Below are positions 8,162 through 31,703 of a stretch of DNA of 64,000 bases, piece by piece; positions within the stretch are counted from its first letter, which is position 1; each line of letters starts with the position of its first letter. The DNA comes from an uncultured virus (IMG/VR IMGVR_UViG_3300032093_000026) (Duplodnaviria; Heunggongvirae; Uroviricota; Caudoviricetes), in the IMG/VR virus record IMGVR_UViG_3300032093_000026. The stretch is one strand, 5' to 3'. Made by a program: the position numbers and the translations under genes. The notes below the pieces were generated by a model. That model saw nothing but the letters and a program-made list of their open reading frames with translations, was not told where the DNA came from and did not search any database.

Positions 8162-8835
8162 GTTGTTGCACTATTTTGTTTATCAATAGCTGTATCAGGT
8201 GGTATTTGATAAGTCATCATCAAATCTTTCATTACTTGAGCTTCTAACTCACCAAACAAGTAGTCTGGAATGTTAAAAGATTGATCTTGTCTAGTTATGC
8301 AATCATCTTCTTTACATGTCCATAAACTAATATCATCTTCAAAAATTCCTTCTATTCTAACAGCATCCCATTCTAAGTTTGGAAAGTATAAGTAATCATC
8401 TAAAAACCAATAGTATTTAGCTTTATTATATTTAAATGTAGATCCATTAGATAACCTAACATAGTTTGTAGATGTAGTAGGTTGTAAAATATCAGAGTTG
8501 TCAATAGATGTAACAGCTCTAATAAGAGGACCAAAATATCCTTGCATAAAAACAGGAAGTTTGTCTTTTGTACGTTTAATTGTACAATCTGCTTTTATAC
8601 CTGCACAACAACCTTCCACTTTATCTACTTCTACAAGTTCTACACAATCAAGAGTTTGCATAGCTGAAGAAAAAACCATTAGTTTATTCTTGCTATCTTC
8701 ACGTTTCATTAACCATTTTGCATGCTTTATTACAAATGAATAAAGCATACGATCAGTCATAAACGCATCTTGTTTGTTCGTTTTTAACTGATTACGCAAA
8801 CGTGATAGAACATCTCCAATTGTAACTCTAGCCAT
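8158..8835 (-). CDS. Tail ring/tubular protein
   Basis: 225 aa with RTKDKLP, YYWFLDDYLY and IEGIFEDD; synteny with the tail module. Confidence 0.6.
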   Translation of the reverse strand: MARVTIGDVLSRLRNQLKTNKQDAFMTDRMLYSFVIKHAKWLMKREDSKNKLMVFSSAMQTLDCVELVEVDKVEGCCAGIKADCTIKRTKDKLPVFMQGYFGPLIRAVTSIDNSDILQPTTSTNYVRLSNGSTFKYNKAKYYWFLDDYLYFPNLEWDAVRIEGIFEDDISLWTCKEDDCITRQDQSFNIPDYLFGELEAQVMKDLMMTYQIPPDTAIDKQNSATT

Positions 8836-9472: not shown

Positions 9473-10690
9473 TTAATTGTTTACATTATACGTAAATTCA
9501 GATATTTTTCCTTTTTCAATATCATGCACTTCCATAACTGCTTGGCGTTTAGAACCAGTATATTTGTTGTGGTAATGCCAGTAGTCAGTAGAACAAAGGC
9601 TAGGAAGATGTTTAACAGCAAAACCATTGGTTTCATTTTCACTGACATATTCTGTTGTTTTTTTAGAATGAAAGTGTCCTGTGTAGCATGTACGATACTT
9701 TGTTTTGCCCCAAGAAATTGGAAACTCAGTTGCATAAATAAGTGGCGTGTTCTTTTTATTAACATCACCGTGTTCAAAAGCAAAAAAGTTGTGACCATAC
9801 ACCACAACTTTTCTTTCTGAATATTCTACATCAAAATAGATTGAGTAGTCTTCCTTATCAAAACACTTAGATAGTGCGTGAGCCAAATGGTAAGAACTAA
9901 GTCGATCGTGATTACCAGGAACATAAACTACATGAAGATTTTCACAAAACTGTTTAAGATAGCATATAGACCAATATAAAGAATCAAATGCTTTTGTATA
10001 TGCTTCATGAGCACGCAATTCATTGTTTACTGGAGTACCTGATGTTGTTGTACCATTAAAAGTATCCATATTTAAAAGATCGCCACCAATTACGTAAACA
10101 ATTTTGTTTAGTTTATGAGACATATATGCTCTATGTACAAGATCTTTTATAGCTACTTTAAAGTTTTCTACTATATCATCATTATGCTCTTTACCAAAGT
10201 GCAAGTCTTGTATTGATAAAATACTAACAGTGTCGTTTTCAAACTTATTATTTAGGTATATTTCACCTGTAACTGGTTGATAATCAGGCTGAAAATTAGC
10301 TATTACATCAGCTAATATATCTTTTTGATCCTTTTTTATAGCTGTGACAAAAGCTGATATATGCCAACCATCATGCTTTTGCTTATTCCAATAGTTACTT
10401 AGTTTCCATTTAGTTGTATCTATTTTAAGGAGTTCTATTATTTCTTCTGCAGTCTTTGGCTCTACAGAAAATACTCCTTTTATCTCAGCCTCACCTTTGT
10501 TTAAATCTTCTTTAACTTCTGTAATTCTATCTTTAATTACTGGTTGCAAATCAATATCAACCCACCTTGTTCTTAAAATTTCTTTTTTGATTTCTTTGTA
10601 CTTTTGTATAGAAATACCTAATTTTACAGAACAGTAGTAGTCTGATTTTTTCCACTTAAGTGAGTTTTTAACTTGCTCGTGAAGATTCAT
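9473..10690 (-). CDS. Calcineurin-like metallophosphoesterase
   Basis: DLH, GGD, GNHD, HG and GHFH motifs in canonical order. Confidence 0.85.
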   Translation of the reverse strand: MNLHEQVKNSLKWKKSDYYCSVKLGISIQKYKEIKKEILRTRWVDIDLQPVIKDRITEVKEDLNKGEAEIKGVFSVEPKTAEEIIELLKIDTTKWKLSNYWNKQKHDGWHISAFVTAIKKDQKDILADVIANFQPDYQPVTGEIYLNNKFENDTVSILSIQDLHFGKEHNDDIVENFKVAIKDLVHRAYMSHKLNKIVYVIGGDLLNMDTFNGTTTSGTPVNNELRAHEAYTKAFDSLYWSICYLKQFCENLHVVYVPGNHDRLSSYHLAHALSKCFDKEDYSIYFDVEYSERKVVVYGHNFFAFEHGDVNKKNTPLIYATEFPISWGKTKYRTCYTGHFHSKKTTEYVSENETNGFAVKHLPSLCSTDYWHYHNKYTGSKRQAVMEVHDIEKGKISEFTYNVNN

Positions 10691-10806: not shown

Positions 10807-12126
10807 TTATTCAAAAGATATATCAAAAAAGTTACCTCTTTGTTTTATATCATCTGTGTTAATTCCTTTGTAATTTAAAAAAGGAATAACATCTATATAA
10901 AACTGTTCTTGATCTTCTTTCCAACCTGGGTGAAAAGAAATATGCATTGGTACATTTAAATCCCAAAGAACTGATTTTTCTTTCAGCAGTTCTTGTTCAT
11001 GACCTTCAACATCTATTTTTATAACAGAGATATTACTTTCAGATAGGTTATATTTTTCTAAAATTTCTTTAATTGAAATACAATCAACTGATATTAAATT
11101 TTCTGTAGCTGAATCTCTTGTAATACTTTCCCCTAAAACAGCAGAACCTAATTGTAATTTAGTTTTTGTAGAAACAGCTTTGTCTTCTAAAATAATATTT
11201 GATATATTATTTAATTTAATATTTTCTACAAACTCTGCATGAGCAACTGGATCAGGTTCAAAACATATACAGTTCTTTGAATATTTTGAAGCTACTAATG
11301 ATATAGGACCTATCCACGATCCTATATCTATAAATGTTTTATTTTTATCAAGTTTTGGAACAATAAAATCAAAGGTTGATTGTTCCCACCAAGAATAATG
11401 ATCTAACCAAAATTTTGTTGTAACTGGTGTATTTTGTACATTAAATTCCAAACCACCTTTATTTACCTTATGACTCATATTAATAGTTGATTTTAATTTG
11501 GTTCCCCAACATGATATACTTGATGCTGCAGTGTTTAAATAATATTTCCATTCATCTGTAATATTTTCATCTGTTAAATACCACGGTGTGTGTTTTATAC
11601 AATATGGTTTATCTAATCTTAAGGCATCATATGCAAAACCAGAAAATGGTCTATATAAAGCAAATGTTGTATCAATATGAGCATCCCATCCAATATCTTT
11701 TCTGTTTATCCAATACTTACTTTCCCATTCTCTTGCTTGCCTTCCTATTTCTGTTTCAGGTAAATCACTTATATCTAATGAAAATCCAACTTTAAAAACA
11801 TCAGTGTTTTCTAAAACATTAATCATTTTATCAAGCCAATCATTTGGAACGTCATCATACAAGCAATCTGAATCAGCTATTATAAAATAGTTATCGTTAA
11901 AGTAAGGTCTTAATTGATCACCCCATACAGAATGGGGACCATTATTTTGACTAGAATAAACAACAGTTACACCTGAGTTATTATAATATTCTAATAATGG
12001 AGGATATGTAGATTGCTGATCAAAAATTACAATCTCAATTCTTGGTTCTTTTAAAAGAAAGTTAACAGCGTTTTTTAAAGAACTAATGAGATTTCTATTG
12101 ACAATAAATGCTTTAATCTTTTTCAA
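10807..12126 (-). CDS. GT-A glycosyltransferase fused to FkbM-family methyltransferase
   Basis: N-terminal DQQSTYPPL, DSD and IDTTFALY. C-terminal IDIGSWIG, FEPDP and IKIDVEGHE (FkbM/Methyltransf_21 signature). Confidence 0.85.
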   Translation of the reverse strand: MKKIKAFIVNRNLISSLKNAVNFLLKEPRIEIVIFDQQSTYPPLLEYYNNSGVTVVYSSQNNGPHSVWGDQLRPYFNDNYFIIADSDCLYDDVPNDWLDKMINVLENTDVFKVGFSLDISDLPETEIGRQAREWESKYWINRKDIGWDAHIDTTFALYRPFSGFAYDALRLDKPYCIKHTPWYLTDENITDEWKYYLNTAASSISCWGTKLKSTINMSHKVNKGGLEFNVQNTPVTTKFWLDHYSWWEQSTFDFIVPKLDKNKTFIDIGSWIGPISLVASKYSKNCICFEPDPVAHAEFVENIKLNNISNIILEDKAVSTKTKLQLGSAVLGESITRDSATENLISVDCISIKEILEKYNLSESNISVIKIDVEGHEQELLKEKSVLWDLNVPMHISFHPGWKEDQEQFYIDVIPFLNYKGINTDDIKQRGNFFDISFE

Positions 12127-12862
12127 GAAAATCTTTTAAAAGTTGTTTATAATCTTGTTCCCAATGTGGGTTCAAATATACATCACCTGTAGGAACATAA
12201 CCTAACTTACGCATGTATTCAACATGTTCACTATGTCTTTGTATCACATTTGGTCTGTCACTAGTATCTGTACCTGCACCACTCATATGATAACTTCTAC
12301 CTCCCCACATATAAAACCAACTCACTTCATTGTCTGGTGGAGCAGCAAATACAACATTTTGTGAATTATATCGAATATTCATTACAAATGTCATATCATA
12401 TCCTGCATTCTCATGTGGATGTTTTCCAAGATTTTCCCAAATTCTTTTACTATAAACAATGCCTGAATTACCTAATCCTGTAATATCAGTAATTGCTTTA
12501 TTGTTAAAGAAAACTCCACGATGCCAGTGTAAAAGATCTGTATCTTCTTTAAAATACTTTGCAATATTTGTTAGATGATTTGGAAGTGCAACATCGTCAT
12601 CGTCCCAAACTGCAATTATATTAGATGAACATTGACTTACAGCAAAGTTTTCTTTTTCACCAATTGTTTGAAATGTGTAATCTAAATTATAAATTTTTAT
12701 TTCAGGATGGTCAAAGATTAATTTTTGTAAAGGGTAATCGTTTACAATAATCATTTCTTTTTTACCAGGATAGTCTTGATTAATAAAAGAATAAATACTT
12801 TCTTCTAATAAATCCACTCTACCATACGTTATACATTTTGCAGATATAAAAGGATAATTCAT
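12113..12862 (-). CDS. GT2-family glycosyltransferase
   Basis: TYGR..LEESI.SF..QDY, IIVND and WDDDD motifs. Confidence 0.85.
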   Translation of the reverse strand: MNYPFISAKCITYGRVDLLEESIYSFINQDYPGKKEMIIVNDYPLQKLIFDHPEIKIYNLDYTFQTIGEKENFAVSQCSSNIIAVWDDDDVALPNHLTNIAKYFKEDTDLLHWHRGVFFNNKAITDITGLGNSGIVYSKRIWENLGKHPHENAGYDMTFVMNIRYNSQNVVFAAPPDNEVSWFYMWGGRSYHMSGAGTDTSDRPNVIQRHSEHVEYMRKLGYVPTGDVYLNPHWEQDYKQLLKDFLEKD

Positions 12863-13785
12863 ATAAGCGCTGATGTTTTAGAAGTGTTAATAATTTCTTC
12901 AGCATACTTATATGAACAAAAATCTTTATTAAGATTTTGAATTTCTATATCATATGGTAATACTAATTGATACTTGCCTTTAAAAAATAAATCAGTTCTG
13001 TCAGAAGTTACACCTGCATTATGAAATATAGGATGTTTATCCCATTCACTAACTGGAGATGTAGCCCAAGAAAAAGAAAGTTTATTAGTTACTAATACTT
13101 GCTTATCCCAAAACCAAAGATTCCAAAGAACTGCCCACATATCAGCACACCAAATTTGTAGTTCATGATATGAAGGATCTAATGCTTTATCTTTATCAAT
13201 TTCATGTGTAATTAATCTAAAAAGATTTTCAGCATCATAATATACTTTTTTCCAAAACTCTGCAGGAATTCCTTTTAAAATATATTGTGCTCCACCACTA
13301 TTTTTTTCTTGCTCAATAATGTATTGTTTATTAACATTAACTATATCAGCCATAAAATCAAGATACTTTTCACCTTTAGATCTAACATAGTTTGCACCAA
13401 TATAACTTACAGTATCGCTTACATAACAATTATCATCTTCAAGAAGTCCTTTAAAATCTAATGGTTTTGCAAAAATAATATCGCAGTCATGATAGAAAAT
13501 AGTTTCATGTTCTAATTCAGGATGCTGCAACCAATGCTTGTACAAAACATGGGGACGTATACTGGATATATAACAAGGTTTTTGCCTGTTATCTGGATAA
13601 AAATAAAATCTCGTATCAGTGTATTTTGCTGCAAGTTTTTGCCATTTTTCAGAAACATGTCCATGGTGCCCACATACAATTTGAATATCTTTTGGATCTA
13701 CACCATTTCTAACAAAGTTATTAATCATAACTTCTACTTGCCATGTATAATAATCTATGGCAGGTTGTACGCATAAAAATTTCAT
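12859..13785 (-). CDS. GT-A glycosyltransferase, possibly a GT95/GT96-like protein O-glycosyltransferase
   Basis: YYTWQ at the N-terminus, DCD (DxD) motif, GGAQY and WCADMWA. Confidence 0.6.
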   Translation of the reverse strand: MKFLCVQPAIDYYTWQVEVMINNFVRNGVDPKDIQIVCGHHGHVSEKWQKLAAKYTDTRFYFYPDNRQKPCYISSIRPHVLYKHWLQHPELEHETIFYHDCDIIFAKPLDFKGLLEDDNCYVSDTVSYIGANYVRSKGEKYLDFMADIVNVNKQYIIEQEKNSGGAQYILKGIPAEFWKKVYYDAENLFRLITHEIDKDKALDPSYHELQIWCADMWAVLWNLWFWDKQVLVTNKLSFSWATSPVSEWDKHPIFHNAGVTSDRTDLFFKGKYQLVLPYDIEIQNLNKDFCSYKYAEEIINTSKTSALI

Positions 13786-13802
13786 AAATGTTGGTTTTTT
13801 TA

Positions 13803-13810
13803 CAAATATA
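13803..13810 (-). promoter_or_regulatory. Bacteroidota-type -7 element (TATATTTG) upstream of the GT operon
   Basis: Matches TAnnTTTG about 18 nt before the ATG at 13785. Confidence 0.4.
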
Positions 13811-13819
13811 TTAAATAAA

Positions 13820-16288
13820 TTAACAATATCCTATTGCTTGTACAAATGATGTTCCTCCAAAAATACCACCTTGAAAACATACAGTATTACCAGGCGCAAG
13901 TGAAAAGTTATTTGACCAGTTAACACAATAATCTGACCAACCACTTACACTTACAAAAAAAGTAGATGTATTTAAATATTCAACAGATGGTGCAACTACA
14001 TATGTAGGAGAAGTGCTAGTAGAACCATCTGTAAAAAATACTCTTAATCTGATTTCAAAAAATGTTGCAACTGGAGGAGTAGCATAAAGACTAAGTATAT
14101 TACATATATTTAAAAAACCAGATTGTACATTAGTTGCAGCAGGACTGCTTTGTGTCCAACTTAACCAATTTTGTTGTCTATGATCTAGAAATACAGCGCT
14201 AACACATTTACAATTATCACCTAAAAGACCCCATAGAATTGTTTGATTACAACCACTTCCCCCAAAAGGTGCTGATGTAACAGTTGCTATTGTAGCGCCT
14301 GGATAACAAGTTCCACCTGGATTTCCTGAAATAAAAGGTGTGCAAGTATTTGTACCTGAAACACATGCGGGTGCAATTGTTGTAGTGCTGGTAGAAGTAG
14401 TTGTTGGTGGACCTGTCACCACAAAACTATTAGATGCAGGACAAATTCCACTTACACTCACAATTCTTAACTGAACAAGAGATCCTATTGGTATTTGAAA
14501 AGGTAACACAGTTGATGAAGATAAACAACCTGTACCTCCTACCACATTATTCCAAGGAGTCCAAGATGTACCTGTACCACTTGTATCAGCTCTAAATTGA
14601 ACTTGAGAACATGTGTTACAACCTACTGTTGGAATTGTGTAATTTATTTGAACAGTTTGACTACCCGTGCCACCACCTGATATTGAACGAGCATCAGTAA
14701 TTGTTGGAGAACAGCATATTGGAGGAGCTAACGTAGTAGTTGTACTAGTTGATGTTGTGCTAGTAGTCGAAGTGGTAGTCGAAGTGGTTGTAGTAGATGT
14801 AGAAGTTGTTGTTGTAGTTGGATTACATACCCCTCGATTTAATGCTTTAAAACCATAAGGATCAGGAAGATTGCTATTAGGTACATTTACCCATAAATTA
14901 GATACACAACTTAAAATACAACTAGCTGGGTAAGGACCAGCTAAGGGACTATAAGCTACAATAGCTGATGGTGCAAATGGAGGTGTTAAAGATGTGTTAG
15001 TTGCATAAGCAACAACCCACGCACCTCCTGGCAGATAAGTAGAACTATTATCCCAATATATGTATAGTACTTCAGGATCTGGTGGATCAACAATAAATTT
15101 ATACCACACCTTACCATTTACGAGTGTTGTCTCAGGGAATAAACTTTGTTCAATATTACCAAAGTTTTCTGAAAATGCATAAAAACAAATATTTTCTGGA
15201 CATTTTCCTAACGCACTACTGCATACTGCAGGTGTTAATGCATTATTACAATCAGGAGTCCATTGATTAGTTGAACTACTTATAGGTAAAGCGTTACCAC
15301 CATTATCAAGTGTTTGAAAAATTGAACCTGCTCCTAAACCATCTATATCCCAAACCCATTTATTAATAGAAGGTAGCCAATAAACAGCTAAACTAGTTGC
15401 ATAACCATACCACACTTTACCATTATATAAAACTGGTGATGTACCGATTGGTAAATCTTCATAACCTAGACCACCTTGTTCTGCTGCAACTATAAAACAC
15501 ATTGTTGGATCAATAGTAGTTGTAGTTGTTGTGGAACTAGTTGTTGTGGAGCTTGTTGTAGTGCTTGTGCTACTTGTTGTTGATGTTGATGTAGTAGTAC
15601 TTGTTGTTGAAGTACTAGTAGATGTAGTAGTACTAGTTGTTGAAGTAGTAGTTGTAGTGGGGCAATTTTCTAAAAGTGAAGAATCTATAAACCCTACACT
15701 TGTTCCACCAACTACTTGTGGTGTCCATAATGGAGGATTTATACCATTAGTAACTGGATATTGTGCTGTTGATGGAAGTGTTTGAATTATTCCACCAAAT
15801 GATGAATCTTCATGAACCCACTGTGTACCATCATAATACACTCTTCTTAATGGAGAATTGTCAAAAACATATTGAGGTTTACCATTTATTTGAGAAGCAT
15901 TACCGCCTGATGATAATTGTATATTATAAAAACAAGCATTACCTACACATTCTATATATAAATTAAAACATATATTAGGAAATACAGTAGTTGTGGTCGT
16001 AGTAGAAGATGTTGTAGTTGTTGAAGAAGTTGTACTACTTGTGGTGGTGCTAGTTGATGTACTGGTAGTAGTAGTTGGTAAAATAATTGGTATATTACAA
16101 CTACTAGTATTTGACGTAGCTATTAAAGCTATTACACCTGGTGATACATCAACTAGCATGCCTGCTAACAAATCTGCTGTATTTACAACAGATGGGTTAA
16201 CAGTACCGCCAGCAGGTATTGTAGATAAAGTCATCGTTGGACCAAATCCAGAACCAAGAGGACCATTTATTTGTACAAATACAAACAT
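13820..16288 (-). CDS. Mucin-like Thr/Ser-rich modular virion fibre protein
   Basis: 822 aa with four poly-T/S tracts and three NGKx[WQ]Y..Y[YW]..W repeats. Confidence 0.65.
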   Translation of the reverse strand: MFVFVQINGPLGSGFGPTMTLSTIPAGGTVNPSVVNTADLLAGMLVDVSPGVIALIATSNTSSCNIPIILPTTTTSTSTSTTTSSTTSSTTTTSSTTTTTTVFPNICFNLYIECVGNACFYNIQLSSGGNASQINGKPQYVFDNSPLRRVYYDGTQWVHEDSSFGGIIQTLPSTAQYPVTNGINPPLWTPQVVGGTSVGFIDSSLLENCPTTTTTSTTSTTTSTSTSTTSTTTSTSTTSSTSTTTSSTTTSSTTTTTTIDPTMCFIVAAEQGGLGYEDLPIGTSPVLYNGKVWYGYATSLAVYWLPSINKWVWDIDGLGAGSIFQTLDNGGNALPISSSTNQWTPDCNNALTPAVCSSALGKCPENICFYAFSENFGNIEQSLFPETTLVNGKVWYKFIVDPPDPEVLYIYWDNSSTYLPGGAWVVAYATNTSLTPPFAPSAIVAYSPLAGPYPASCILSCVSNLWVNVPNSNLPDPYGFKALNRGVCNPTTTTTSTSTTTTSTTTSTTSTTSTSTTTTLAPPICCSPTITDARSISGGGTGSQTVQINYTIPTVGCNTCSQVQFRADTSGTGTSWTPWNNVVGGTGCLSSSTVLPFQIPIGSLVQLRIVSVSGICPASNSFVVTGPPTTTSTSTTTIAPACVSGTNTCTPFISGNPGGTCYPGATIATVTSAPFGGSGCNQTILWGLLGDNCKCVSAVFLDHRQQNWLSWTQSSPAATNVQSGFLNICNILSLYATPPVATFFEIRLRVFFTDGSTSTSPTYVVAPSVEYLNTSTFFVSVSGWSDYCVNWSNNFSLAPGNTVCFQGGIFGGTSFVQAIGYC

Positions 16289-16300
16289 ACTTTATATAAA

Positions 16301-16933
16301 TTAAGAAATCTTCTTAACAAAAATTCTAGTTGGTGTATTATTAGCATCTGAAGGGAATGGTGACTGTGCACTTGGGTTCATACAAACACTATAATAACCA
16401 GCAGCTGTTACTTCAAGTATAAGTGTAGCATTAATTATCTGATCAGCAGCTGCAGCTTCAACTGATTTATAATCATTCAAAAGAGTAATTGAACTCATTG
16501 CTCCACCTGATGTAGTAGAAGAAGATACTCTTACAAGGATATCAACATTACTAGTAAAATCAAAAAAGTGAATTTGAGTAGTTATCTCATAAATACCAGG
16601 TTGCTTAAAATGAATACGAGCTCCTTGGTTAGCATTAGTTCCAGCTACAGATCCAGAATTAACAAGCTCAAACACATCTGTATTTGTGTTAAATAGTACA
16701 CTGTTCCATGGAATGTAGTTATCTATTCCATTTGTCATATTACCATATTGAGCACTTGTAGGATAAGCTCCTCCTGATCCAGGGTTAACCCAGCTAAATC
16801 CAGCTGAAGGAGTTGTGAAGTTCTCTTTTTTCACCCTGTAGGTGGTTGCTCCTGTACTGTCATTCATTACAATTTCAGCACCCTGCGTGTTCCCAGTAAA
16901 TAAAGGAAGAGCAGAAATTTTTACGTTAGGCAT
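16301..16933 (-). CDS. Fibre tip/receptor-binding protein with a C1q/BclA-like C-terminal domain
   Basis: N-terminal VKISALP; IPWN..F..PGIYEITTQIHF jelly-roll pattern. Confidence 0.5.
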   Translation of the reverse strand: MPNVKISALPLFTGNTQGAEIVMNDSTGATTYRVKKENFTTPSAGFSWVNPGSGGAYPTSAQYGNMTNGIDNYIPWNSVLFNTNTDVFELVNSGSVAGTNANQGARIHFKQPGIYEITTQIHFFDFTSNVDILVRVSSSTTSGGAMSSITLLNDYKSVEAAAADQIINATLILEVTAAGYYSVCMNPSAQSPFPSDANNTPTRIFVKKIS

Positions 16934-16987
16934 AGTTTTTAAAATTTAAAAGTTAAAATATTTAGGGTTATACAAATATAATATAAT

Positions 16988-19900
16988 CTATTGTTCTGTT
17001 ATTAACAAATCATTGTTTTCAGCTTGAAGCTCATCATTTAATTCAGTTGATATAAAGTTACTAGGATCTGCAGTGGTAGTAGTTGTAGTACTAGTAGAAG
17101 TTGTACTTGTTGTAGTTGGAGTCGTACAAGTACCATCAATATATTCAATTTCAACAGCATCTGTACTTGAAATTGTTAAAGATGATGTTGTATAATTTCC
17201 AGTACCTATAACATCTATACACTCAACTATAACACTGTTAATTTTAATATTAAGTTTTGATGTAGGTGCAGCTGTTCCTATATTAATAGTCAAAGCACCA
17301 ACATAACCACCATGAACACCTTCTGCAGTTTGACCATTTGTAACAGGTAAACTACCTACTGTTATAATATACCAAGAAGGTGTAATATTATCTAAACTAG
17401 ATCCTGCAGATGTATTATTAGTTACAAACAAACTTCCAGAAGGTAATGTTGTTGTGGTTGTAGTACTAGTTGTTGTGGTCGTACTAGTTGAGGTAGTCGT
17501 TGTTGTAGTAGGTTCCTCTGTAGTAGTTGTTGTTGTACTAGTTGTAGACGTTGTTGATGTCGTAGTAGTAGTAGGCTCTTCTGTAGTCGTAGTTGTAGTA
17601 CTTGTTGTGGTCGGTTCTTCAGTTGTCGTAGTAGTTGTTGAAGTAGTTGTAGTTGTGCTTGTGGTAGTTGTAGGACATATTGATTGCTCTATAACTAAAT
17701 CTTCATCATTCTCAGCAGTTATGGAATCATCTCCTTCACTTGCTAACAAACATAAAGTAGCAGGATCTATTGTAGTAGTTGTAGTTGTACTGGTTGTAGA
17801 AGTAGTGGTAGTGGTTGGCTCCTCTGTAGTAGTAGTGGTCGTACTAGTTGAAGTAGTCGTAGTTGTAGGTTCCTCTGTGGTTGTAGTAGTTGTAGAAGTT
17901 GTACTAGTAGTAGGTTCTTCCGTAGTCGTAGTTGTAGTACTGCTACTAGTAGTAGTTGTGGTAGGTTCTTCTGTTGTAGTTGTTGTAGTAGAAGATGTTG
18001 TTGTACTGCTAGTAGTAGTAGTTGTTGGTGCACAAGACTGACAATCGTTAGGGAAACCTGATAGCAAACATCCAACTTCACATGGGGTAGTTGTTATATC
18101 CCCAGTTATATTAATTGGTGTTCCAGCAAGAACACAAGCTGTTATAGTGATGTTTGTTCCTATTATACCAATAGTATCTGGAGTTCCGTTACATTGTATA
18201 TAATCTATATTTCCTCCTACTGTAGGGCCTGAAGTAAAGCTATAGCAGAAGCAACAAGACTCAGCTACAATATTATCATCATTCTCAGCTGTTATAGGAT
18301 CATCACTTTCAGTAGATATGAAACACAATGTAGCTGGATCTAACGTGGTAGTAGTCGTAGTGCTTGACGTTGTGGTAGTACTAGTTGAAGTTGTAGTAGT
18401 GGTGGGTTCTTCAGTTGTTGTAGTTGTAGTTGTCGGCTCCTCAGTAGTAGTAGTAGTGGTTGTAGGTTCCTCAGTAGTAGTAGTAGTGGTAGTACTTGTA
18501 CTTGTTGTAGTAGTCGAAGTAGTAGTTGTACAAGTTGTTACAAAACTTTTTGCTCTTACATTTCCTAAAGAATCTGTAAATGCTATCCAATAAGTTCCTA
18601 CAGCAACACCTCCTTGTGAATATACTACAGATGTACCAACTGTCCAACTAGTATTAGATAATGCTGCAGCTTCACTTGTAAACCAAAAATTACCAAAAGC
18701 ATAACCTGTGCCTGAACCTCCTGTTGGGTTATTTGCTGTAACCTCAATTGATTGAGTTGCAGCATTTACGCATACTACAGATACTATATCAAAGTCTAAT
18801 GGACAAGGTGATTGTTCTATAGCTAAATTATCATCATTTTCCCCTGTTATAGGATCATTCCCTTCTGTAGCTATCAAACAAAATGTAGCAGGATCTAATG
18901 TTGTACTAGTTGTTGTCGTTGTTGTGCTAGTGGTACTAGTTGTAGTAGTAGACGTTGTAGGTTCTTCAGTTGTTGTGGTCGTTGTAGTACTTGATGTTGT
19001 TGTTGTCGTAGGTTCTTCTGTGGTTGTCGTAGTTGTACTAGTACTTGTTGTAGTAGACGTTGTAGTGGTGCTTGTGCTACTTGTAGTTGTAGTTGTACTA
19101 GTAGTAGTTGTCCCAGGACTATCACATAATAAACCAAATGCAAAGTTAGTTCTGTATTCACTATATGTAGCCTGAATCTGAATTTGTGTATGTGTTCCGG
19201 GAAACTGTACAATACCATAACCTTCATTACCAGATATAGTGTAACTATTAGATCCAAATACTACACCGCTGTCTCCCACTGTAAGGTCTGTTGGTGTAAC
19301 AGCACAAGGTCCAGCAGCATTAAATCCACATCCAGGAAGTTCAATAAATGGTACATTAGGTTTAAACAACTGCTGTGTTACAGGGCTACCCAAAGACCAT
19401 ATACCAAGAATAGGATCAGCAATTGGTGATGAGAAATTAAAGGTGATTGTCACTATTCCAGCAATATTACCTTTAATATAGTATGAATTACCACTTGGTG
19501 CAACATTACCATAACTTGTACAAGTAATACCATTAGTACATTGTACAGGTTCAACACCTGTGGGATTAAGAGGATCAAATCCATCACCAGGACCTGCAGG
19601 ACCATTGGTAGACATTGTGATACCAATTATACCTTGTTTAGCAGTATTTATAGATCCTTCAGTATAATTATCACCAACATTCTGCCATACAATTTGACAA
19701 AGTGTAGTAGTAGTTGTTGTTACAGGACATTCTTCAGTTCTAAGTTGATCATCATTTTCTGCTGTAATTGGTTCATCAGCTTCAGTAGCAAGTAAACAAA
19801 TATTGTTTGGATCTTCAGTAGTAGTAGTTGTAGTAGAAGATGTAGTAGAAGATGTTGTAGAAGATGTTGTAGGGATTGTACCTGTACCACCACCATTGCT

Positions 19901-20788
19901 ACAAGGATCTTCTGTAGTTGTAGTTGTAGTGGATGTTGTTGTAGTAGTAGACGTAGTTGTTGTAGGACAAGCACTTGCATCACCACTTCCTGGAACAGTA
20001 CAAGGTGGTTCATATATACATAAATCAAATGTACCAATTTGACCACTCGATGGTCCACCATACCCCCAAAATCTTACATAAATTGTATCGCCAGATGTTA
20101 ATCCTGTTAAATGTATAAACGGCATTGATGAACCTGATACATCGTCAACACAATAAGTTTGTGTAAGAGATTGACAATCTGAACCTTCGTAAATTGCTAA
20201 AGCACCATCTGTAATTTGATTTGCTCTTGTACTTACAAGCACATTACCGCTGGCAGGAACTATAAATCTTAACCATAAATCATGACCTAAATAATTTCCA
20301 CAAGTTGGAATTGGTAAAGATGCACCTATACTAGGAGTTGTATATGTTGTATAAACACAATTACACTGAACTGGAACTAATGTTGAAACACAAGCATTTG
20401 TTCCTGGTTGAGCTGTTGTAGTAGTTGTAGTTGAAGTAGTACTTGTTGTTGATGATGTAGTACTAGTACTTGTTGATGTAGATGTAGTTGTCGTTGAAGT
20501 AGATGTGCTAGTAGTTGATGTGGTAGTGGTTGTTGTGGATGTAGTTGTAGTGGTACATCTTAGATTTAGTTTATCTAATATAATATCTACAACTTCTTGA
20601 ACATTCATTCCTTTTTTTACACCAGCGCAATCGTAGTCACTTCCATTATAAACAATACACTCTGACTCAACAATAATATCACATTTTTGAGCATCAGGAC
20701 ATATAGTTGTTGGGCATGGATATGTTTTACCGTCTTGTGGACAGCAACAAGGTAAATTATTATATGAGCAACTACAACTGCAAGACAT
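16988..20788 (-). CDS. Mucin-like Cys-rich modular fibre protein
   Basis: 1266 aa with a Cys-rich N-terminal module, long T/S and TTTTEEP tracts, and five acidic [TS]E..D.I..ENDD repeats. Confidence 0.7.
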   Translation of the reverse strand: MSCSCSCSYNNLPCCCPQDGKTYPCPTTICPDAQKCDIIVESECIVYNGSDYDCAGVKKGMNVQEVVDIILDKLNLRCTTTTTSTTTTTTSTTSTSTSTTTTSTSTSTSTTSSTTSTTSTTTTTTAQPGTNACVSTLVPVQCNCVYTTYTTPSIGASLPIPTCGNYLGHDLWLRFIVPASGNVLVSTRANQITDGALAIYEGSDCQSLTQTYCVDDVSGSSMPFIHLTGLTSGDTIYVRFWGYGGPSSGQIGTFDLCIYEPPCTVPGSGDASACPTTTTSTTTTTSTTTTTTEDPCSNGGGTGTIPTTSSTTSSTTSSTTTTTTEDPNNICLLATEADEPITAENDDQLRTEECPVTTTTTTLCQIVWQNVGDNYTEGSINTAKQGIIGITMSTNGPAGPGDGFDPLNPTGVEPVQCTNGITCTSYGNVAPSGNSYYIKGNIAGIVTITFNFSSPIADPILGIWSLGSPVTQQLFKPNVPFIELPGCGFNAAGPCAVTPTDLTVGDSGVVFGSNSYTISGNEGYGIVQFPGTHTQIQIQATYSEYRTNFAFGLLCDSPGTTTTSTTTTTSSTSTTTTSTTTSTSTTTTTTEEPTTTTTSSTTTTTTTEEPTTSTTTTSTTSTTTTTTSTTLDPATFCLIATEGNDPITGENDDNLAIEQSPCPLDFDIVSVVCVNAATQSIEVTANNPTGGSGTGYAFGNFWFTSEAAALSNTSWTVGTSVVYSQGGVAVGTYWIAFTDSLGNVRAKSFVTTCTTTTSTTTTSTSTTTTTTTEEPTTTTTTTEEPTTTTTTTEEPTTTTTSTSTTTTSSTTTTTTLDPATLCFISTESDDPITAENDDNIVAESCCFCYSFTSGPTVGGNIDYIQCNGTPDTIGIIGTNITITACVLAGTPINITGDITTTPCEVGCLLSGFPNDCQSCAPTTTTTSSTTTSSTTTTTTEEPTTTTTSSSTTTTTTEEPTTSTTSTTTTTTEEPTTTTTSTSTTTTTTEEPTTTTTSTTSTTTTTTIDPATLCLLASEGDDSITAENDEDLVIEQSICPTTTTSTTTTTSTTTTTTEEPTTTSTTTTTTEEPTTTTTSTTSTTSTTTTTTEEPTTTTTTSTSTTTTTSTTTTTTLPSGSLFVTNNTSAGSSLDNITPSWYIITVGSLPVTNGQTAEGVHGGYVGALTINIGTAAPTSKLNIKINSVIVECIDVIGTGNYTTSSLTISSTDAVEIEYIDGTCTTPTTTSTTSTSTTTTTTADPSNFISTELNDELQAENNDLLITEQ
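17450..19110 (-). repeat. Coding tandem repeats (TTTT-EEP units)
   Basis: Many EEPTTTTT(S)T units with synonymous codon variation. Confidence 0.85.
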
Positions 20789-20795
20789 TATTAAA

Positions 20796-21113
20796 TTATT
20801 TAAAAGTTACTGTAGCTGTAAAACTACAATTTAGTGGTGGTAATGTTGTTTTACAATGCGGCAAGTTTTTAATTACATTTTCTAATATTATACAAAGTGA
20901 ATCACCATCTTTTAAACCATAACATTCTATATTAGGTCCGTGATATTGAATACACTCACAATCATAAAATTCTTCACACGGTTCACAATTAGGATTAATA
21001 GTTGTAGTGGTAGTCGTAGTTGTTGTACACTTAGGTACACAACTAGGACATACAGTTTCATGACAACCGCATGAAGCACTACATCCACAACTACAATTAC
21101 AATGACAACTCAT
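20796..21113 (-). CDS. Small Cys-rich protein with a Thr tract
   Basis: 105 aa; CIQYHGP..C..L..GD module shared with neighbouring genes. Confidence 0.65.
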   Translation of the reverse strand: MSCHCNCSCGCSASCGCHETVCPSCVPKCTTTTTTTTTINPNCEPCEEFYDCECIQYHGPNIECYGLKDGDSLCIILENVIKNLPHCKTTLPPLNCSFTATVTFK

Positions 21114-21126
21114 AATTTTTTATTTT

Positions 21127-24100
21127 TTAAGGTACAGGATCTTGACAGGTTTCACCTAAAGGATCGCACATTTTAGAAAAAACTGATTTTATACCAGTAC
21201 CAGTAGCAGGATTAAGGCCAAATTGAACACATCTCCTATACTTTGTATTAGCATCAGTAAAAGTTAAATTTTCAATTGTAGGAAGAAACTCACAATTTGA
21301 ATATGAAACAGTTCCTGTAAAAGGAAATGCTAATGCACCGCTTGCTTCAAATGTAATACACATACACGATAAATCAACTGAATTACAATCTTGACCAGTA
21401 GCAATATTACCATATGACATTTTGTTACAAGCGTTAGTTCCTGTTACGCATTCCCATGAAGATCCAATTGGATAATCAAGATTTTGACCAGTATAGCTAA
21501 GTAAAAAGGCATATAATGTTCCAACAGGATCGTTCAAATCACTAACAATTTCCCATCTGGCAAGTCCTATATTCCAATAAATATATAGAGAAATTTGTGA
21601 AATACTTGGTGATGGGAATGTAGGTGTTTGTACAACATAATAAGCTTTTCCATTTATATTTCCTTGTGGTGTTGCTTCACTATCATATACAGAATACTCT
21701 GTAGCACCATCTATTCCACCAATAAAGTTTACACATATACCACTGCATCCATAAACTGTTACAGGAGGATTGCCACCAGTTGATTCTGCAAAACATGTAC
21801 CTAAGTTAAGAACATACTTTGGTGATATGCCAGAAACATTAGTTGCAGTAACATCTTGTAATGAAGAGGTACAAACATTAACATAACTTACTGGATTAGT
21901 TGATGCTTCTGCAAAAGTAATAACTTGAGTTACACCTTCACAATCTGGATAAGTTACTTGAGCAGCAAAACCACCTTGGATTTGATAATCTATATTTAAA
22001 CAATTACAACAACTGCCTATATTACTTGAAACAACAAAACCACCACCACCAGTTATATTATTTACATTTACCCAATCTAATGATGTTCCATTTGGTGCTG
22101 GAACAACACCATTATTAAAAGGTACATTTAAGTATGCTGCTAACGTACCATTTATAGCATTAATTCTAATTTCCCAACGAGTTCCAGACCATACTAAATA
22201 ACCAGTATTTGCCGTATTATTAATACTAGTAAATCGAAATACTGGTTGATTATTAACAATATCTATTGTTGTAGAAGATTGAGATGAATAACCATTTGCA
22301 CCTCCAACAGTTTCAAGACTTGTAACTAAACAAGCTGATTGACACAGTAATTCATTATAACTAGTAACTTTTAAAAATAATGTTGAACTACCAAAAGGTG
22401 CCACAGGCTGCTCAACCCATGCTGTTTCTGGTGGAGTTAATCCAACACCAACTGTTGAATTTGTAGCTGTAATAAAACCAATAGCTACAGGAGGTGTTAC
22501 GACAGGTACTGCAGTTTGTGCTGCTACCCATTGAGTACCATTATAATAAACAGTAAAATGATATGTTGTTACACCTAAAGTATCTGTACCAGAATACCAA
22601 TATTTACCATTATATAAACCATTATTAGTCAAATCAAAATTAAAACCAATTGCTTCAGCATTCCATGATGAACAAAGCGGTACTCTTGGACAAGATGGAT
22701 TATTAAAATCAAGAGGTGCTGCTAAAGCAAGCGTCCCACTACCATATGGAAGTTCACCAGTTACAGTCCAATTATTTGTTGTTGGAGGATATATGCCTAC
22801 ACCAGCATCAGTATTTGTGGAAATTTGATTACTTGTTGGAATTGGAAATACAGGTGGATTAATTGTATGTGCTGCTATCCACGTTGTACCATCATAATAT
22901 ACAGTAAGATATGAGTTATCTGGTGCAAACATTGTATTTGTTTTTGGTGTTGTGTACCAAGCTTTACCATTATAAATTCCACCAAATTGCATTTGAACTT
23001 GACCATTGCCAACAGGTGTTGCTTCATTACCCCACTCAGCACACAATGTAGGTTGTATTGTAGTGGTCGTTGTAGTTGATGTGGTTGACGTAGTAGAACT
23101 AGTTGTGCTTGTAGTGCTACTAGTTGTTGTTGTGGTTGGAGGACATGATATACGATTGTTACAAAGTTCAGTTGTACTAGCTGAAACACCATTTGGTAAT
23201 GGTGTTCTAAACATAGTTGCACACACACGTGTACCATTAGAAACAGATACAACTTTATCAAGATATGTAATACAATCTACAACAGTAACATTTACAGGTG
23301 AACCTAAAGAAGATATAAATGTATAACATCTACAAGGTAAATTTAAGGTTGTAGTTGTTGTAGTGCTTGTAGATGAAGTAGTACTGGTACTTGTGGAAGT
23401 GGTTGTACTACTTGTTGTAGTACTTGTAGTAGATGTACTGGTAGTGCTAGTAGTAGTTGTTGTTGGTACTGGACAAGCTGTATTATTAACACATGGTATA
23501 ATAGATGAAATAAGTTGTGACGTTGCACCATTATTATCTGAAGTACCGACAAATCCACTTCTTGCACATATAGCAGCTACATTTCTAGAAATAGTTAATG
23601 TCTGAGATATACCGCTACAATCATCCCAAAATATATCTGTACTAGAACCAATAGGTCCATTTGAAATAACTGAATAACAATAACATGGAATTGTAGTGGT
23701 TGTTGTTGTACTAGATGTAGAAGTAGTTGAAGATGATGTAGATGTCGTTGAACTACTCGTAGTAGTCGATGTAGATGTTGTTGTAGAACTACTAGTTGTT
23801 GTGGTACTTGTAGAAGTGGTAGTCGTAGAACTTGTAGTTGTAAACTGTGGTTTTGGTGTAGTTGTGGTAGTAGTTGAACTAGTACTTGTAGAAGATGTGG
23901 TTGTACTACTAGTAGTTGATGTACTACTTGTTGATGTAGTTGTTGAAGTGGTTGTACTAGTTGTAGGACAAGGTGTAACATCACAAAGAGGTCCAGGTGT
24001 AGAAATAACAATAGGACCGCATGCATCAATTGCTGTTACTGAAATTGCACAAACTATGTGTTGTTGATTTGGTCCAATATAAATCCCCCATACAAGATTA

Positions 24101-25332
24101 CCATTTCTATCTATATATGAATAATACCCACCATTAGGGCCACCATCAATTGTAAAACAATAAGGAGGAGGTAAAGTGGTTGTTGTCGTTGTACTTGTGG
24201 TGGTAGTTGTTGATGTTGTCGTAGTTGTTGTAGTTGTACCAAGAGATGTGTTAGTACATTCAGGTAATGAAGATGCACCATCAATTTTAAAAGATACACT
24301 ACCAGCAGGAGGAACAATTACACCATAAGGAGGAAAATGTTGAAATTCATAAATGTTACCATCTTTATTACCTAAGTAAATTTTACCCTGTGCTTGAAAT
24401 ACACCAAAAGGAAAATCTACAATACCTGTTACATTAACCGTTTCTTCAAGCGTTCCTGTTGCGTAATCATACTGATATACAAACTTTTGATTTGTTACAA
24501 TATCAAAAGTGGTAACTATAAACTTACCGTTAGATGTTAATAAAAAGTCACCTGATATTTGATCATTAATATCTAATTGAAAACCTGGAATAAAAGTATT
24601 CGTAGTTAAATCATATTCCCCAACAGTAGAAAAACCACCCACTGATAAAATAGTATTTACTACAAGAAGTCTTGTATTATTTATAGCCCAAAGACCATCA
24701 GATGAATTAAATCCTACAGGCCATGTGTAAGTAGCTACAGGATTTATAGAAGATGTAAAAGGATTAATTGTAATATTCCATTCTACAAATTGTCGCGTTA
24801 CTAAATTTATTAACCAAAGTTTTGTACTCGTATGAGCTACGTCAGGTGAGTTAGGACCAAACTGTATATTTAAAAGAGTACTTGTATTAGTTATTACATT
24901 ATATTGATAAACTTGTGAACCAGAGTTTAATATAACTAAACAAGGATCAGCAGTTGTAGTGGTGGTCGTAGAAGTAGTTGTTGTTGTAGATGTAGAAGTA
25001 GAAGTACTTGTTGTAGTTGTAGGTAATGGACAAATTGTAGTAGTAGTAGTAGTTGTAGAAGTAGACGTAGTACTAGTTGTTGTAGTACTTGTAGTGGTGG
25101 TCGATGTTGCACAACTTACGTTTACAAAAAACGGTTGATTCCATGTATCTTGAGATACAATTTTAACAACAGTGGTACCATTAGGAACTAAAACATTATA
25201 TCCAGCTGGTTGAAATGCTGATAAAGGAATATTTGTAATAAAAGGAATTGCGTAACCATCTGCATTTGTATATAAATCAAATGGTCCACTACCTGGTGAT
25301 ACGTTAAGTGATATGTTTATTAAAAATGACAT
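21127..25332 (-). CDS. Mucin-like modular fibre protein
   Basis: 1401 aa. N-terminal GPF.LY module, propeller-like domain, several T/S tracts, CxCY repeats and NGKxWY repeats. Confidence 0.7.
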   Translation of the reverse strand: MSFLINISLNVSPGSGPFDLYTNADGYAIPFITNIPLSAFQPAGYNVLVPNGTTVVKIVSQDTWNQPFFVNVSCATSTTTTSTTTTSTTSTSTTTTTTTICPLPTTTTSTSTSTSTTTTTSTTTTTTADPCLVILNSGSQVYQYNVITNTSTLLNIQFGPNSPDVAHTSTKLWLINLVTRQFVEWNITINPFTSSINPVATYTWPVGFNSSDGLWAINNTRLLVVNTILSVGGFSTVGEYDLTTNTFIPGFQLDINDQISGDFLLTSNGKFIVTTFDIVTNQKFVYQYDYATGTLEETVNVTGIVDFPFGVFQAQGKIYLGNKDGNIYEFQHFPPYGVIVPPAGSVSFKIDGASSLPECTNTSLGTTTTTTTTSTTTTTSTTTTTTLPPPYCFTIDGGPNGGYYSYIDRNGNLVWGIYIGPNQQHIVCAISVTAIDACGPIVISTPGPLCDVTPCPTTSTTTSTTTSTSSTSTTSSTTTSSTSTSSTTTTTTPKPQFTTTSSTTTTSTSTTTTSSSTTTSTSTTTSSSTTSTSSSTTSTSSTTTTTTIPCYCYSVISNGPIGSSTDIFWDDCSGISQTLTISRNVAAICARSGFVGTSDNNGATSQLISSIIPCVNNTACPVPTTTTTSTTSTSTTSTTTSSTTTSTSTSTTSSTSTTTTTTLNLPCRCYTFISSLGSPVNVTVVDCITYLDKVVSVSNGTRVCATMFRTPLPNGVSASTTELCNNRISCPPTTTTTSSTTSTTSSTTSTTSTTTTTTIQPTLCAEWGNEATPVGNGQVQMQFGGIYNGKAWYTTPKTNTMFAPDNSYLTVYYDGTTWIAAHTINPPVFPIPTSNQISTNTDAGVGIYPPTTNNWTVTGELPYGSGTLALAAPLDFNNPSCPRVPLCSSWNAEAIGFNFDLTNNGLYNGKYWYSGTDTLGVTTYHFTVYYNGTQWVAAQTAVPVVTPPVAIGFITATNSTVGVGLTPPETAWVEQPVAPFGSSTLFLKVTSYNELLCQSACLVTSLETVGGANGYSSQSSTTIDIVNNQPVFRFTSINNTANTGYLVWSGTRWEIRINAINGTLAAYLNVPFNNGVVPAPNGTSLDWVNVNNITGGGGFVVSSNIGSCCNCLNIDYQIQGGFAAQVTYPDCEGVTQVITFAEASTNPVSYVNVCTSSLQDVTATNVSGISPKYVLNLGTCFAESTGGNPPVTVYGCSGICVNFIGGIDGATEYSVYDSEATPQGNINGKAYYVVQTPTFPSPSISQISLYIYWNIGLARWEIVSDLNDPVGTLYAFLLSYTGQNLDYPIGSSWECVTGTNACNKMSYGNIATGQDCNSVDLSCMCITFEASGALAFPFTGTVSYSNCEFLPTIENLTFTDANTKYRRCVQFGLNPATGTGIKSVFSKMCDPLGETCQDPVP

Positions 25333-25335
25333 TTT

Positions 25336-26256
25336 TTAACATATATTTATTCGAGCTACACTATTTCCTGTAACACATGAATTAAATAGTACAGTTCCTG
25401 TTGGTGAAGTTATTCTAAGCCAGTTTATATTAGAGTGTGGTATATTATTACCACATACAGCATTATACGTTGTCATCGCAGCTGGAATAGAAATATTAAT
25501 AGTTGTAGATCCAGGTGTAATTGTTGCTGCAACAGCTAATGCCTGCGCTTGCGACAGAACAGTTTTACTATATCTTGAATATCGATTCCACGTTGCTGAT
25601 GGATTTAAAGCAGTTGGTATATTATTATAATCTCTACATATATTTCTTCCAGAAAGTGATAAAGCACCACCTGTACCAAAATCATTATTTAAAAGAATAT
25701 CTCCAAGATAAACACCATTGCCATAAATTTCAAACATTGCTTGATTACACACATGATCACCAATATCACCCATACAAGGATGTGTATAACCAGCTGGTAA
25801 TAATTGCAACTCATTAAAATCATGTATATATATACCTTCTATTATCAGACCATTTAAACAATTTACTACAGGTCTTACTGTTGTAGTTGTAGTTGTTGAT
25901 GTTGATGTAGAGGTAGATGTTGATGTAGAGGTAGATGTCGTACTAGTAGTTGAGGAAGTACTAGTTGTTGTTGGTAATCTAGTAGTAGTAGTAGTTGTTG
26001 TACTCGTAGTTGTCGTACTAGTAGTAGTTGTTGTTGTTGGAGGTATATTAACAATTATACTATTTGTACATTTACCATTTGATCTAATTTTTACACTTGT
26101 TGTAAAATCAGGTACATTCACAGTTACTCCAGATGTAAGATTTGCTTTTGAAATATTAATACCATAAGCAACGATATATCCATCCACATTTGAATAAATC
26201 ATAAATGGACCTGTATCACCACCTGCTGTATTTAATTTTACAAAAATAGCTTGCAT
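25336..26256 (-). CDS. Thr-rich virion protein
   Basis: 306 aa; DTGPF.IYSN N-terminal module followed by a ~50 aa T/S tract. Confidence 0.65.
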   Translation of the reverse strand: MQAIFVKLNTAGGDTGPFMIYSNVDGYIVAYGINISKANLTSGVTVNVPDFTTSVKIRSNGKCTNSIIVNIPPTTTTTTSTTTTSTTTTTTTRLPTTTSTSSTTSTTSTSTSTSTSTSTSTTTTTTVRPVVNCLNGLIIEGIYIHDFNELQLLPAGYTHPCMGDIGDHVCNQAMFEIYGNGVYLGDILLNNDFGTGGALSLSGRNICRDYNNIPTALNPSATWNRYSRYSKTVLSQAQALAVAATITPGSTTINISIPAAMTTYNAVCGNNIPHSNINWLRITSPTGTVLFNSCVTGNSVARINIC

Positions 26257-26257
26257 C

Positions 26258-27415
26258 TTAACTTATATTTTTACAAACATTGAAACCTGTTATTTTATAA
26301 ACAACACTAGGGCTTGCTGGTATATTCTGAGGATTTTGAAAAATGTTAACACCATTAACAATTAATGTTTCTATACGCATTCTAGGTGCAGCACCAGGTG
26401 CATTAATTAATACAAAATCACTAATGGCATTAGCAGGAAGATTAATATTAAAATTATATTGATCTAACAAAGTTGTACAATTTGTATCAGAATATCTTTT
26501 TGCAACACCTGTAATAGTAAGTGCTACTGGATTAATTCCTAATGACTTAAACACCTCAATTCCTATAAAACCATCAAAATTTGTTGGTGAAATAATAAAT
26601 GTAGCCACTGAAGGATCAAATACTGTTGTTGTAGTTGTTGTACTTGATGTAGTTGTTGGTGGTGGTATACATGATTCATTTGACTGCTGTTGTGAAGAAC
26701 CAGCTGCACATGCTTTACCAAGAGGTGTCACAGTAACAAAAGATGTATTAACAGATATTGTATTTGTTCTAGCACAATAGTATTTTGTTGAATTTCCACT
26801 TATGTTTTCTGTGTAACTAAAATTATTACAACCATCATAAGATATTCCTTGAGTATTTGCTGAATTATTTTTAACACTATAACATTGACAACGTAACGTA
26901 GTTGTTGTAGTAGTAGTTGATGTTGATGTTGTAGATGTTGTTGTAGTACTTGTAGTACTTGTAGACGTAGTCGTTGTTGTTGGAGCAGGAGTACAACAAA
27001 TATTTGTATCATTATATGAACCAGGACCTACAGATTGTGTAATAGGTTTAGTAGCATCAATACATCTTGTAACAGTTATATTACGAATTGTTAAAGAACT
27101 AGGTGTTATTCTTCCACATTGATAAAAAGTAAATGTAGTTGGTGTTACACCGCCTGTAAATGTAAAGTTTCTACAAGGACATTTAGTTGTTGGTACAGTT
27201 AATAAAACTTCATCACATTTTTTTCCAGAATTAGATTGAACACTTACTTTAGCTGTTGCATTTGGAACAATCATGTAATAACCAGATTGCAATTGTAGTT
27301 TAGTAACAGTTGATGGCCATATAGTAGGATTGTTTAAATTATCATAAAGTATAATACTATAAGGACCTGTATCAGGTCCTGAATTGTTTAATGTTAAAGC
27401 TATAGTTTTTGACAT
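26258..27415 (-). CDS. Thr-rich Cys-rich virion protein
   Basis: 385 aa; DTGPY module, two CxC repeats and T tracts. Confidence 0.65.
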   Translation of the reverse strand: MSKTIALTLNNSGPDTGPYSIILYDNLNNPTIWPSTVTKLQLQSGYYMIVPNATAKVSVQSNSGKKCDEVLLTVPTTKCPCRNFTFTGGVTPTTFTFYQCGRITPSSLTIRNITVTRCIDATKPITQSVGPGSYNDTNICCTPAPTTTTTSTSTTSTTTTSTTSTSTTTTTTTLRCQCYSVKNNSANTQGISYDGCNNFSYTENISGNSTKYYCARTNTISVNTSFVTVTPLGKACAAGSSQQQSNESCIPPPTTTSSTTTTTTVFDPSVATFIISPTNFDGFIGIEVFKSLGINPVALTITGVAKRYSDTNCTTLLDQYNFNINLPANAISDFVLINAPGAAPRMRIETLIVNGVNIFQNPQNIPASPSVVYKITGFNVCKNIS

Positions 27416-27422
27416 TAATAAT

Positions 27423-27704: not shown

Positions 27705-27737
27705 AGTTAATTAATTATTCAGATACGGCACTATCTC

Positions 27738-31647: not shown

Positions 31648-31703
31648 AATTTTAAAATTTAAAAGGGTTTATAAACAATATAAATACAATATAATATACG
31701 AAT

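Follow-up and report, generated by a model that had tools for sequence, protein, structure and literature searches.

The closest described relatives of the enzyme studied here are eukaryotic: HPAT and SERGT1 attach the first sugar to protein Hyp and Ser (PMC7933510, in part), with a GT-A-like fold predicted for family GT95 and a novel fold for GT96 (PMC8476585, in part). The closest described phage system is that of the mycobacteriophages Che8, Corndog and Myrna, whose own glycosyltransferases (GTs) glycosylate the C-termini of capsid and tail-tube proteins (Freeman et al. 2023, as cited in parts of PMC12363180, PMC12619734 and PMC11256854).

Here we describe a GT gene in a crAss-like phage, within a stretch of 64,000 nucleotides (henceforth the window), whose 308-aa product P0001 is proposed to be an initiating Thr O-glycosyltransferase. 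Loci with this GT resemble the mycobacteriophage system in combining phage GT genes with Ser/Thr-rich C-terminal extensions on capsid or tail proteins; they differ in the dense poly-Thr tracts, the predicted target, and in their occurrence in Bacteroidota and Firmicutes phages. Since no Mycobacterium phage was present among the named organism groups of our tblastn matches (E≤10; 79 records), the enzyme family is apparently a different one by sequence. HPAT1-3 (GT95) and SERGT1 (GT96) place the initial sugar on protein hydroxyls within repetitive tracts (PMC7933510, in part), which is the activity proposed for P0001. These are Golgi membrane enzymes acting on Hyp or Ser-Hyp, whereas the phage GT is predicted to be soluble and cytoplasmic, with poly-Thr as its proposed acceptor.

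Gene order around the glycosyltransferase

The genes for terminase (42788-44983), portal (39945-42692), the Crassvirus major capsid protein (36945-38564) and tail ring proteins (7235-8835) are all on the minus strand (as are all window features given below). The nearest relative record (G001) is 88.7 kb long with a CheckV completeness of 74%. The GT gene (12859..13785) is flanked on one side by seven consecutive genes whose products carry Thr tracts and on the other by a pair of genes for further GTs. The first of this pair encodes a GT2 glycosyltransferase (12113..12862; PF00535, E=3e-11), a candidate chain extender which overlaps the GT stop by 4 nt, and the second a fusion of GT2 with an FkbM methyltransferase (10807..12126; TIGR01444, E=6e-22), a candidate extender that may also add a methyl cap. 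A conserved metallophosphoesterase gene (PHROG 704; 9473-10690) forms the border of the GT cassette that is present or absent in relatives.

On the other side, the Thr-tract block (13820-29312) holds 30 tracts with a combined length of 745 residues, of which 538 are Thr and 124 are Ser. Starting next to the GT, it encodes an 822-aa protein (13820..16288; 5 tracts, 84 residues), a mucin-like 1266-aa protein (16988..20788; 9 tracts, 370 residues), a 105-aa Cys-rich protein (20796..21113; 1 tract), a 1401-aa protein (21127..25332; 10 tracts, 159 residues), proteins of 306 aa (25336..26256) and 385 aa (26258..27415) with 2 tracts each, and a 524-aa protein conserved in the phage clade (27738..29312; 1 tract). 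As the initial annotation had stated, the GT is the first gene past this block, 34 nt downstream of the ORF at 13820-16288, and intergenic distances among the Thr-block, GT, GT2 and GT2-FkbM genes are -14 to 54 nt. Codon usage within the tracts is mixed (ACT 215, ACA 215, ACC 50, ACG 33); the DNA is therefore not a simple repeat, and simple-sequence slippage was rejected as the origin of the tracts. The proteins encoded at 16988-29312 are also very rich in Cys (up to 48 residues), and in the 1266-aa protein the Thr tracts are separated by repeated acidic modules resembling 'LATE.DDPITAENDD'. A PDB search with three Thr-module proteins of the window gave no significant match. We infer that the Thr proteins of the window are virion components, because their genes lie between those for the capsid and tail ring and because homologous cases place the tract on an annotated major capsid or tail protein.

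The GT had also been credited with its own TATATTTG element. One is present (13803-13810, 17 nt ahead of the GT ATG), contained in a promoter-like element at 13801..13813, but it is not exclusive to the GT, as related copies precede the late genes starting at 16933, 31647 and 39832. The 8-mer alone occurs at chance frequency (10 matches vs. 9.4 expected), and so does TATTATATTTGTA with up to 2 mismatches (19 vs. 15.3 expected), while TAnnTTTG was found within 60 nt upstream of GT homologues in just 14 of 99 distinct upstream regions; TATATTTG was rejected as a GT-specific signal on its chance frequency and on these 14 regions. A longer form, TATATT[AT]?GTA, which was defined after the fact and searched on the late strand over 1-48 kb, has 4 matches, all of them in non-coding DNA (9% of the stretch) and at most 75 nt from a start codon. 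In the close relatives L001, L007 and L030, the same element stands ahead of the GT gene. TAnnTTTG is a Bacteroidota promoter box, which the longer element fits, and the latter is probably a late promoter common to several late genes of the clade; given its recurrence before other late genes, it is not special to the GT gene. Copies of TATATTATATT(T)GTA lie at 13801-13813, 16971-16985, 31685-31698 and 39862-39875, each ahead of a late gene, and the element also occurs in two GT-negative relatives (L212 and L225).

Fold, motifs and relation to HPAT/SERGT

P0001 is a soluble GT-A enzyme belonging to an unnamed family of glycosyltransferases. Pfam and NCBIfam contained no match for it and PDB sequence searches no real match; it matches PHROG 4417 over its full length (E=1.4e-75; residues 1-301 vs. 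1-291 of 293), a group with no assigned function and the annotation label 'prophage pi2 protein 34'. Our literature search, confined to open-access papers, found none that gives the family a function, and 'pi2 protein 34' occurs once, as a table label (PMC8768576, in part). The family comprises 2652 relatives among 2859 candidates clustered at 90% identity (852 relatives at 50% clustering), and 77 GenBank phage records carry a member, mostly phages of Lactobacillus, Enterococcus, Staphylococcus and Lactococcus. P0001 has no membrane segment (maximum 19-residue KD hydropathy 0.77), and its domain begins at residue 2. Among 100 relatives scanned, 19 carry a second, fused GT domain (GT2, GT6, GT7C, GT25, GT29 or GT32; E<1e-3). 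In five relatives (P0126, P0128, P0133, P0139 and P0166), the fusion partner is either a radical SAM/SPASM domain or a Cys-rich domain with weak DUF6171-like matches.

The three motifs that had been read from the sequence occupy conserved positions in a 95-sequence family alignment. These are YYTWQ (residues 12-16; 13738..13752), aligned to Y.WQ of the HPAT/SERGT-like proteins in PF23452; DCD (residues 100-102; 13480..13488), a DxD metal/nucleotide-sugar motif that ends the strand at 95-99; and WCADMWA (residues 212-218; 13132..13152), aligned to W..EMY with D215 at the acidic position. In addition, His255 (13021..13023), a probable metal ligand, is aligned to an invariant His of PF23452 proteins. 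Conservation is near-complete for W15 (93/95), D100 (94/95), D102 (95/95) and W212 (92/95), and M216, W217, H255 and K269 are each found in all 95 sequences; at position 215, 66 sequences have D and another 18 have E, making it acidic in 84 of 95. A DxD after the fourth strand and a conserved C-terminal His are as expected for a GT-A fold. The AF2 model of P0001 (77-sequence alignment; pLDDT 97.9) matches solved GT-A enzymes of the GT8/GT24/GT6 group, led by LgtC (Z 14.6, rmsd 3.6, 233 aligned), glycogenin (Z 14.3) and Skp1 GAT1 (Z 14.2). The likeness in fold extends across retaining enzymes such as UGGT and BoGT6a (Z 14.6-12.4 for the group) and to the PBCV-1 capsid GT (2p6w; Z 10.8). TM-scores are only about 0.4-0.5 (UGGT, about 0.45 in a Foldseek search of solved structures), and there is no useful profile similarity to GT8 or GT6.

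The resemblance to GT95/GT96, which the initial annotation had put forward, holds at the level of both profiles and models. As PF23452 does not call P0001, eukaryotic members were gathered for profile comparison from metagenome contigs by a short motif pattern (80 of 124 loci recovered in full). They are unnamed metagenomic proteins rather than the characterised Arabidopsis enzymes, and 27 of the 30 scanned match PF23452, 26 of them above its cut-off; a subset we take to be SERGT-like. In hhalign, the phage family matched 28 PF23452-type domains with a probability of 95% (pairwise E 3-4e-8). The alignment is collinear across some 250 columns and brings into register the motifs Y.WQ, Y..[RK]P, DxD and W..[DE]M as well as a Tyr, a Gly, a His and a Lys. 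Relative to W..EMY, the phage family has D for E in most members and W for Y. The probability was still 95% when the selection motif and all downstream sequence were deleted, was 88-97% in three random 8-sequence subsamples, and was 79% for the strong-HPAT subset and 92% for the rest of the set. Control families, all of similar or smaller depth, reached 10% (GT8; 8 sequences), 12% (GT6; 3 sequences) and under 1% (GT2, GT7C and GT32, the last with 2 sequences), and P0001 had no Pfam match to GT8 (PF01501).

Structure searches point the same way, if indirectly. An AF2 model of a single HPAT domain had as its best viral match in BFVD the family member A0A6J5SW30 (E=9.5e-11, TM 0.59/0.63), a protein that is also the top structural match to P0001 (TM 0.96); the divergent member LP65 orf49 came only at rank 30 in the HPAT-model search. 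The best PDB matches of the HPAT model are the same LgtC/GT6/glycogenin set as those of P0001, whose own lists of solved-structure matches contain no HPAT/SERGT entries. GT8-type best matches had been named beforehand as a sign against a GT95/GT96 relationship. P0001 does have such matches, but they are uninformative and do not refute the idea, since the HPAT model retrieves the same neighbours.

The similarity is nonetheless remote. P0001 does not match PF23452 at its gathering cut-off of 23.9 bits (best relative 12.6 bits), weak matches occur in 2 of 77 family members (best E 0.09) and in none of 62 further relatives, and sequence identity with HPAT-like proteins amounts to about 15%. Being under the Pfam cut-off, the phage family is, judged by its profiles, a sister of HPAT/SERGT (PF23452) and not a member. 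PF23452 profile searches of prokaryotic genomes found nothing in 5 genomes, 401 Bacteroidota or 401 Bacillota, with controls likewise without a match, and are uninformative; a motif scan of viral contigs found no PF23452 protein in the 3 of 8 loci scanned. In the ESM Atlas, 19 of the 30 closest named clusters are listed with PF23452 (in one of them, for about 10% of the members), which we treat as a lead only; a DUF7164 lead from the same source was found in 0 of 301 genomes.

One alternative is that P0001 elongates on the same poly-Thr proteins: the first sugar would come from host O-glycosylation or from a different phage GT, and a GT8-like P0001 would attach the second. Bacteroidota possess general protein O-glycosylation, and the closest solved structures are mostly enzymes with sugar acceptors (UGGT, LgtC, WbbM and Skp1 GAT1). 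The HPAT model, however, yields these same neighbours, hhalign prefers HPAT/SERGT to GT8 (95 vs. 10), and the family GT is usually the first in runs of GT genes and N-terminal in fusions. Moreover, no other GT was annotated in the 7 Firmicutes siphophage stretches examined, where head-tail modules carry the family GT, which fits an initiating role. We thus consider elongation unlikely.

Co-occurrence with poly-Thr tracts

The proposed link between the GT and Thr tracts is supported by co-occurrence in two phage sets anchored independently of the GT. Around the GT itself, 97 of 125 viral loci, which include many near-copies, have a Thr tract (9 or more Thr among 12 residues, encoded on the GT strand), and in 83 the tract belongs to the gene immediately upstream; when other residues were tested in this way, 4 loci were found for Pro, 2 for Gln and 1 for Ser. 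In the first independent set, 79 crAss-like loci anchored on the tail ring, GT and tract occur together in 14 and are jointly missing from 65, with no mixed cases; setting aside 11 GT-negative loci with less than 8 kb upstream and adding the window gives 15 with both vs. 54 with neither (n=69). A quick tree of the ring protein implies 5 changes, with 2 independent pairs on strong branches and 5 on all branches, which is not significant.

When the 50 longest ring records (of 79) were searched in full, the GT turned up in the same 7, and a run of 7 Thr codons in 6 of these 7 and in 6 of 43 GT-negative records. On inspection, 4 of the latter 6 comprised three true Thr runs and one poly-Gln, so tracts do exist without the GT. 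Poly-Thr runs in GT-negative crAss-like records are found at L370:3194-4663, L371:3429-4910 and L372:1704-4226. Orthologues of the 524-aa protein, which is encoded 14 kb from the GT, carry a tract at 5 of the 14 loci with the GT and at none of 55 others (3 of which are capsid-anchored loci whose GT status was not established). A set of 80 capsid-anchored loci contained no GT and one tract, its anchor being too distant from the GT to be informative.

In the second set, siphophages of the Lactobacillus type anchored on the tail tube, 47 of 64 loci were used (17 were truncated, frameshifted or without the anchor): 31 have both GT and tract, 15 have neither and 1 has a tail tract only, i.e., 46 of 47 agree. 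The tail-tube tree offers 2 independent pairs, one of them discordant, and is not significant. The one exception among the 47 loci (L385) kept the Thr tract of its tail tube, while the GT is nowhere in the complete record and the capsid has no Thr tail. There (L385:7423-10648, record G856), the capsid ends in a domain of Ig-like appearance, which suggests that a cassette was swapped recently; in GT-negative relatives, a comparable C-terminal domain often replaces the Thr tail.

Cultured phages show the same association on different carriers. Thr runs were found on non-homologous particle-module proteins near the GT in 8 of 9 inspected (phiFL1A, bIL285, iLp84, MA9V-3, 1706, VPE25, phiCTP1 and PMBT8), the carriers being capsid, tail-tube, Ig-like or neighbouring structural-module proteins; LP65 has no Thr run within 8 kb of the GT. 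In cultured dairy phages, the GT is a single 'hypothetical' gene beside a Thr-tailed capsid or tail tube. In the Enterococcus phage VPE25, an unannotated small ORF directly before the GT homologue (L610:7725-7880) consists almost entirely of Thr repeats and may extend the capsid gene by way of a frameshift.

It is also conceivable that the acceptor is something else, such as phage DNA, a small molecule or a polysaccharide of the host surface. The tracts would then be unglycosylated flexible linkers which hitch-hike with the GT, as the two are physically linked. Phage GTs that target DNA and host serotype are known (PMC12619734, in part), few independent gain or loss events lie behind the co-occurrence, and GT and tract are at times found apart: besides the tracts without a GT, 28 of the 125 GT loci have no tract nearby. 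Searching the whole records of 18 such loci (at least 3 kb upstream) revealed a run of 6 Thr codons in 5, including 3 of 4 near-complete records, and a complete 33-kb GT-carrying record (G876) has no Thr run. Against this, the tracts decorate non-homologous proteins (capsid, tail tube, Ig-like decoration, baseplate-region proteins and crAss fibres) in unrelated phages, sometimes several proteins kilobases apart, the GT gene is part of the late structural module and encodes no membrane segment, and the nearest characterised relatives modify peptides. This alternative therefore appears improbable, to about the same degree as elongation. That the GT comes and goes with Thr runs in unrelated phages means that it most likely adds the first sugar there.

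Bacteroidota homologues, proposed mechanism and significance

Chromosomal homologues in Bacteroidota point independently to peptide acceptors through their place in double-Gly RiPP clusters. Of 45 such homologues, 41 are fused to a further domain, and their neighbours include a C39 peptidase-ABC exporter in 30, a double-Gly precursor in 15 and either in 35, compared with none of the 125 viral GT loci. By NCBIfam, several precursors are TIGR04149-like (most below the cut-off) and one is of the pinensin type, many cores start with Thr/Ser-rich stretches, and rSAM/SPASM and LanC-like genes adjoin the homologues. Examples among L099-L164 are L102:4200-13790, L112:6507-12836 and L153:7596-11669, in which the C-terminal fused domain is unnamed. 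Known glycocin enzymes are GT2, a family to which the phage GT is unrelated by profile. The clusters are nevertheless comparable to glycocin systems, described from Bacillota, in which a sugar is placed on Ser, Thr or Cys of double-Gly leader peptides (PMC9576775, in part). The Bacteroidota clusters may represent an undescribed glycopeptide class.

Taking together the fold, active-site motifs, HPAT/SERGT-like homology, gene order and poly-Thr co-occurrence observed here, we consider it likely that P0001 is a late, cytoplasmic, metal-dependent GT-A enzyme that glycosylates the poly-Thr hydroxyls of particle proteins and acts first. In the proposed mechanism, the soluble GT would be expressed late in infection and bind a host NDP-sugar through D100/D102 and H255 in a Mn-dependent manner, with D215 providing the acidic side chain of the acceptor site, and would move the sugar onto Thr (and some Ser) hydroxyls in the unstructured tracts. 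As the structural neighbours are GT8/GT6-like, the modelled enzyme would be retaining (alpha). The transfer of a non-sugar or phospho-sugar group to the tracts by a Stealth-like phosphotransferase or nucleotidyltransferase, suggested by CpsY, GNPTAB and IspD among the structural matches (Z 9.5-9.9) and by weak Stealth_CR2 matches in single members (E 0.014-0.17), is very improbable, as these lie well below the GT8-type enzymes (Z 13-14.6) and the profile match is to HPAT/SERGT.

With P0001 as the initiating Thr O-glycosyltransferase, the GT would act alone in Firmicutes siphophages, whereas in the phage of the window the GT2 and GT2-FkbM proteins would then extend and methylate the glycan, and some 30 tracts on seven proteins would become mucin-like stalks. 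Candidate benefits are stiff, extended stalks, protease resistance, and altered adhesion or shielding. For PHROG 4417 as a whole, we favour, with moderate confidence, the broader reading that it is a prokaryotic and viral branch of HPAT/SERGT, i.e., a stand-alone peptide O-glycosyltransferase that recognises poly-Thr as a tag and serves phage mucin-like coats and Bacteroidota glycosylated RiPPs.

Phage virion glycosylation has, in the parts of the open-access literature covered, been shown only for mycobacteriophages. What is new here is an apparently different, widespread candidate enzyme with a visible target signature (poly-Thr). If the proposal is correct, virion glycosylation would be widespread and predictable from sequence, with users ranging from dairy siphoviruses to crAss-like aquatic phages, and the enzymes that glycosylate plant extensins would have bacterial and phage kin, whose members in RiPP clusters suggest new glycopeptides.
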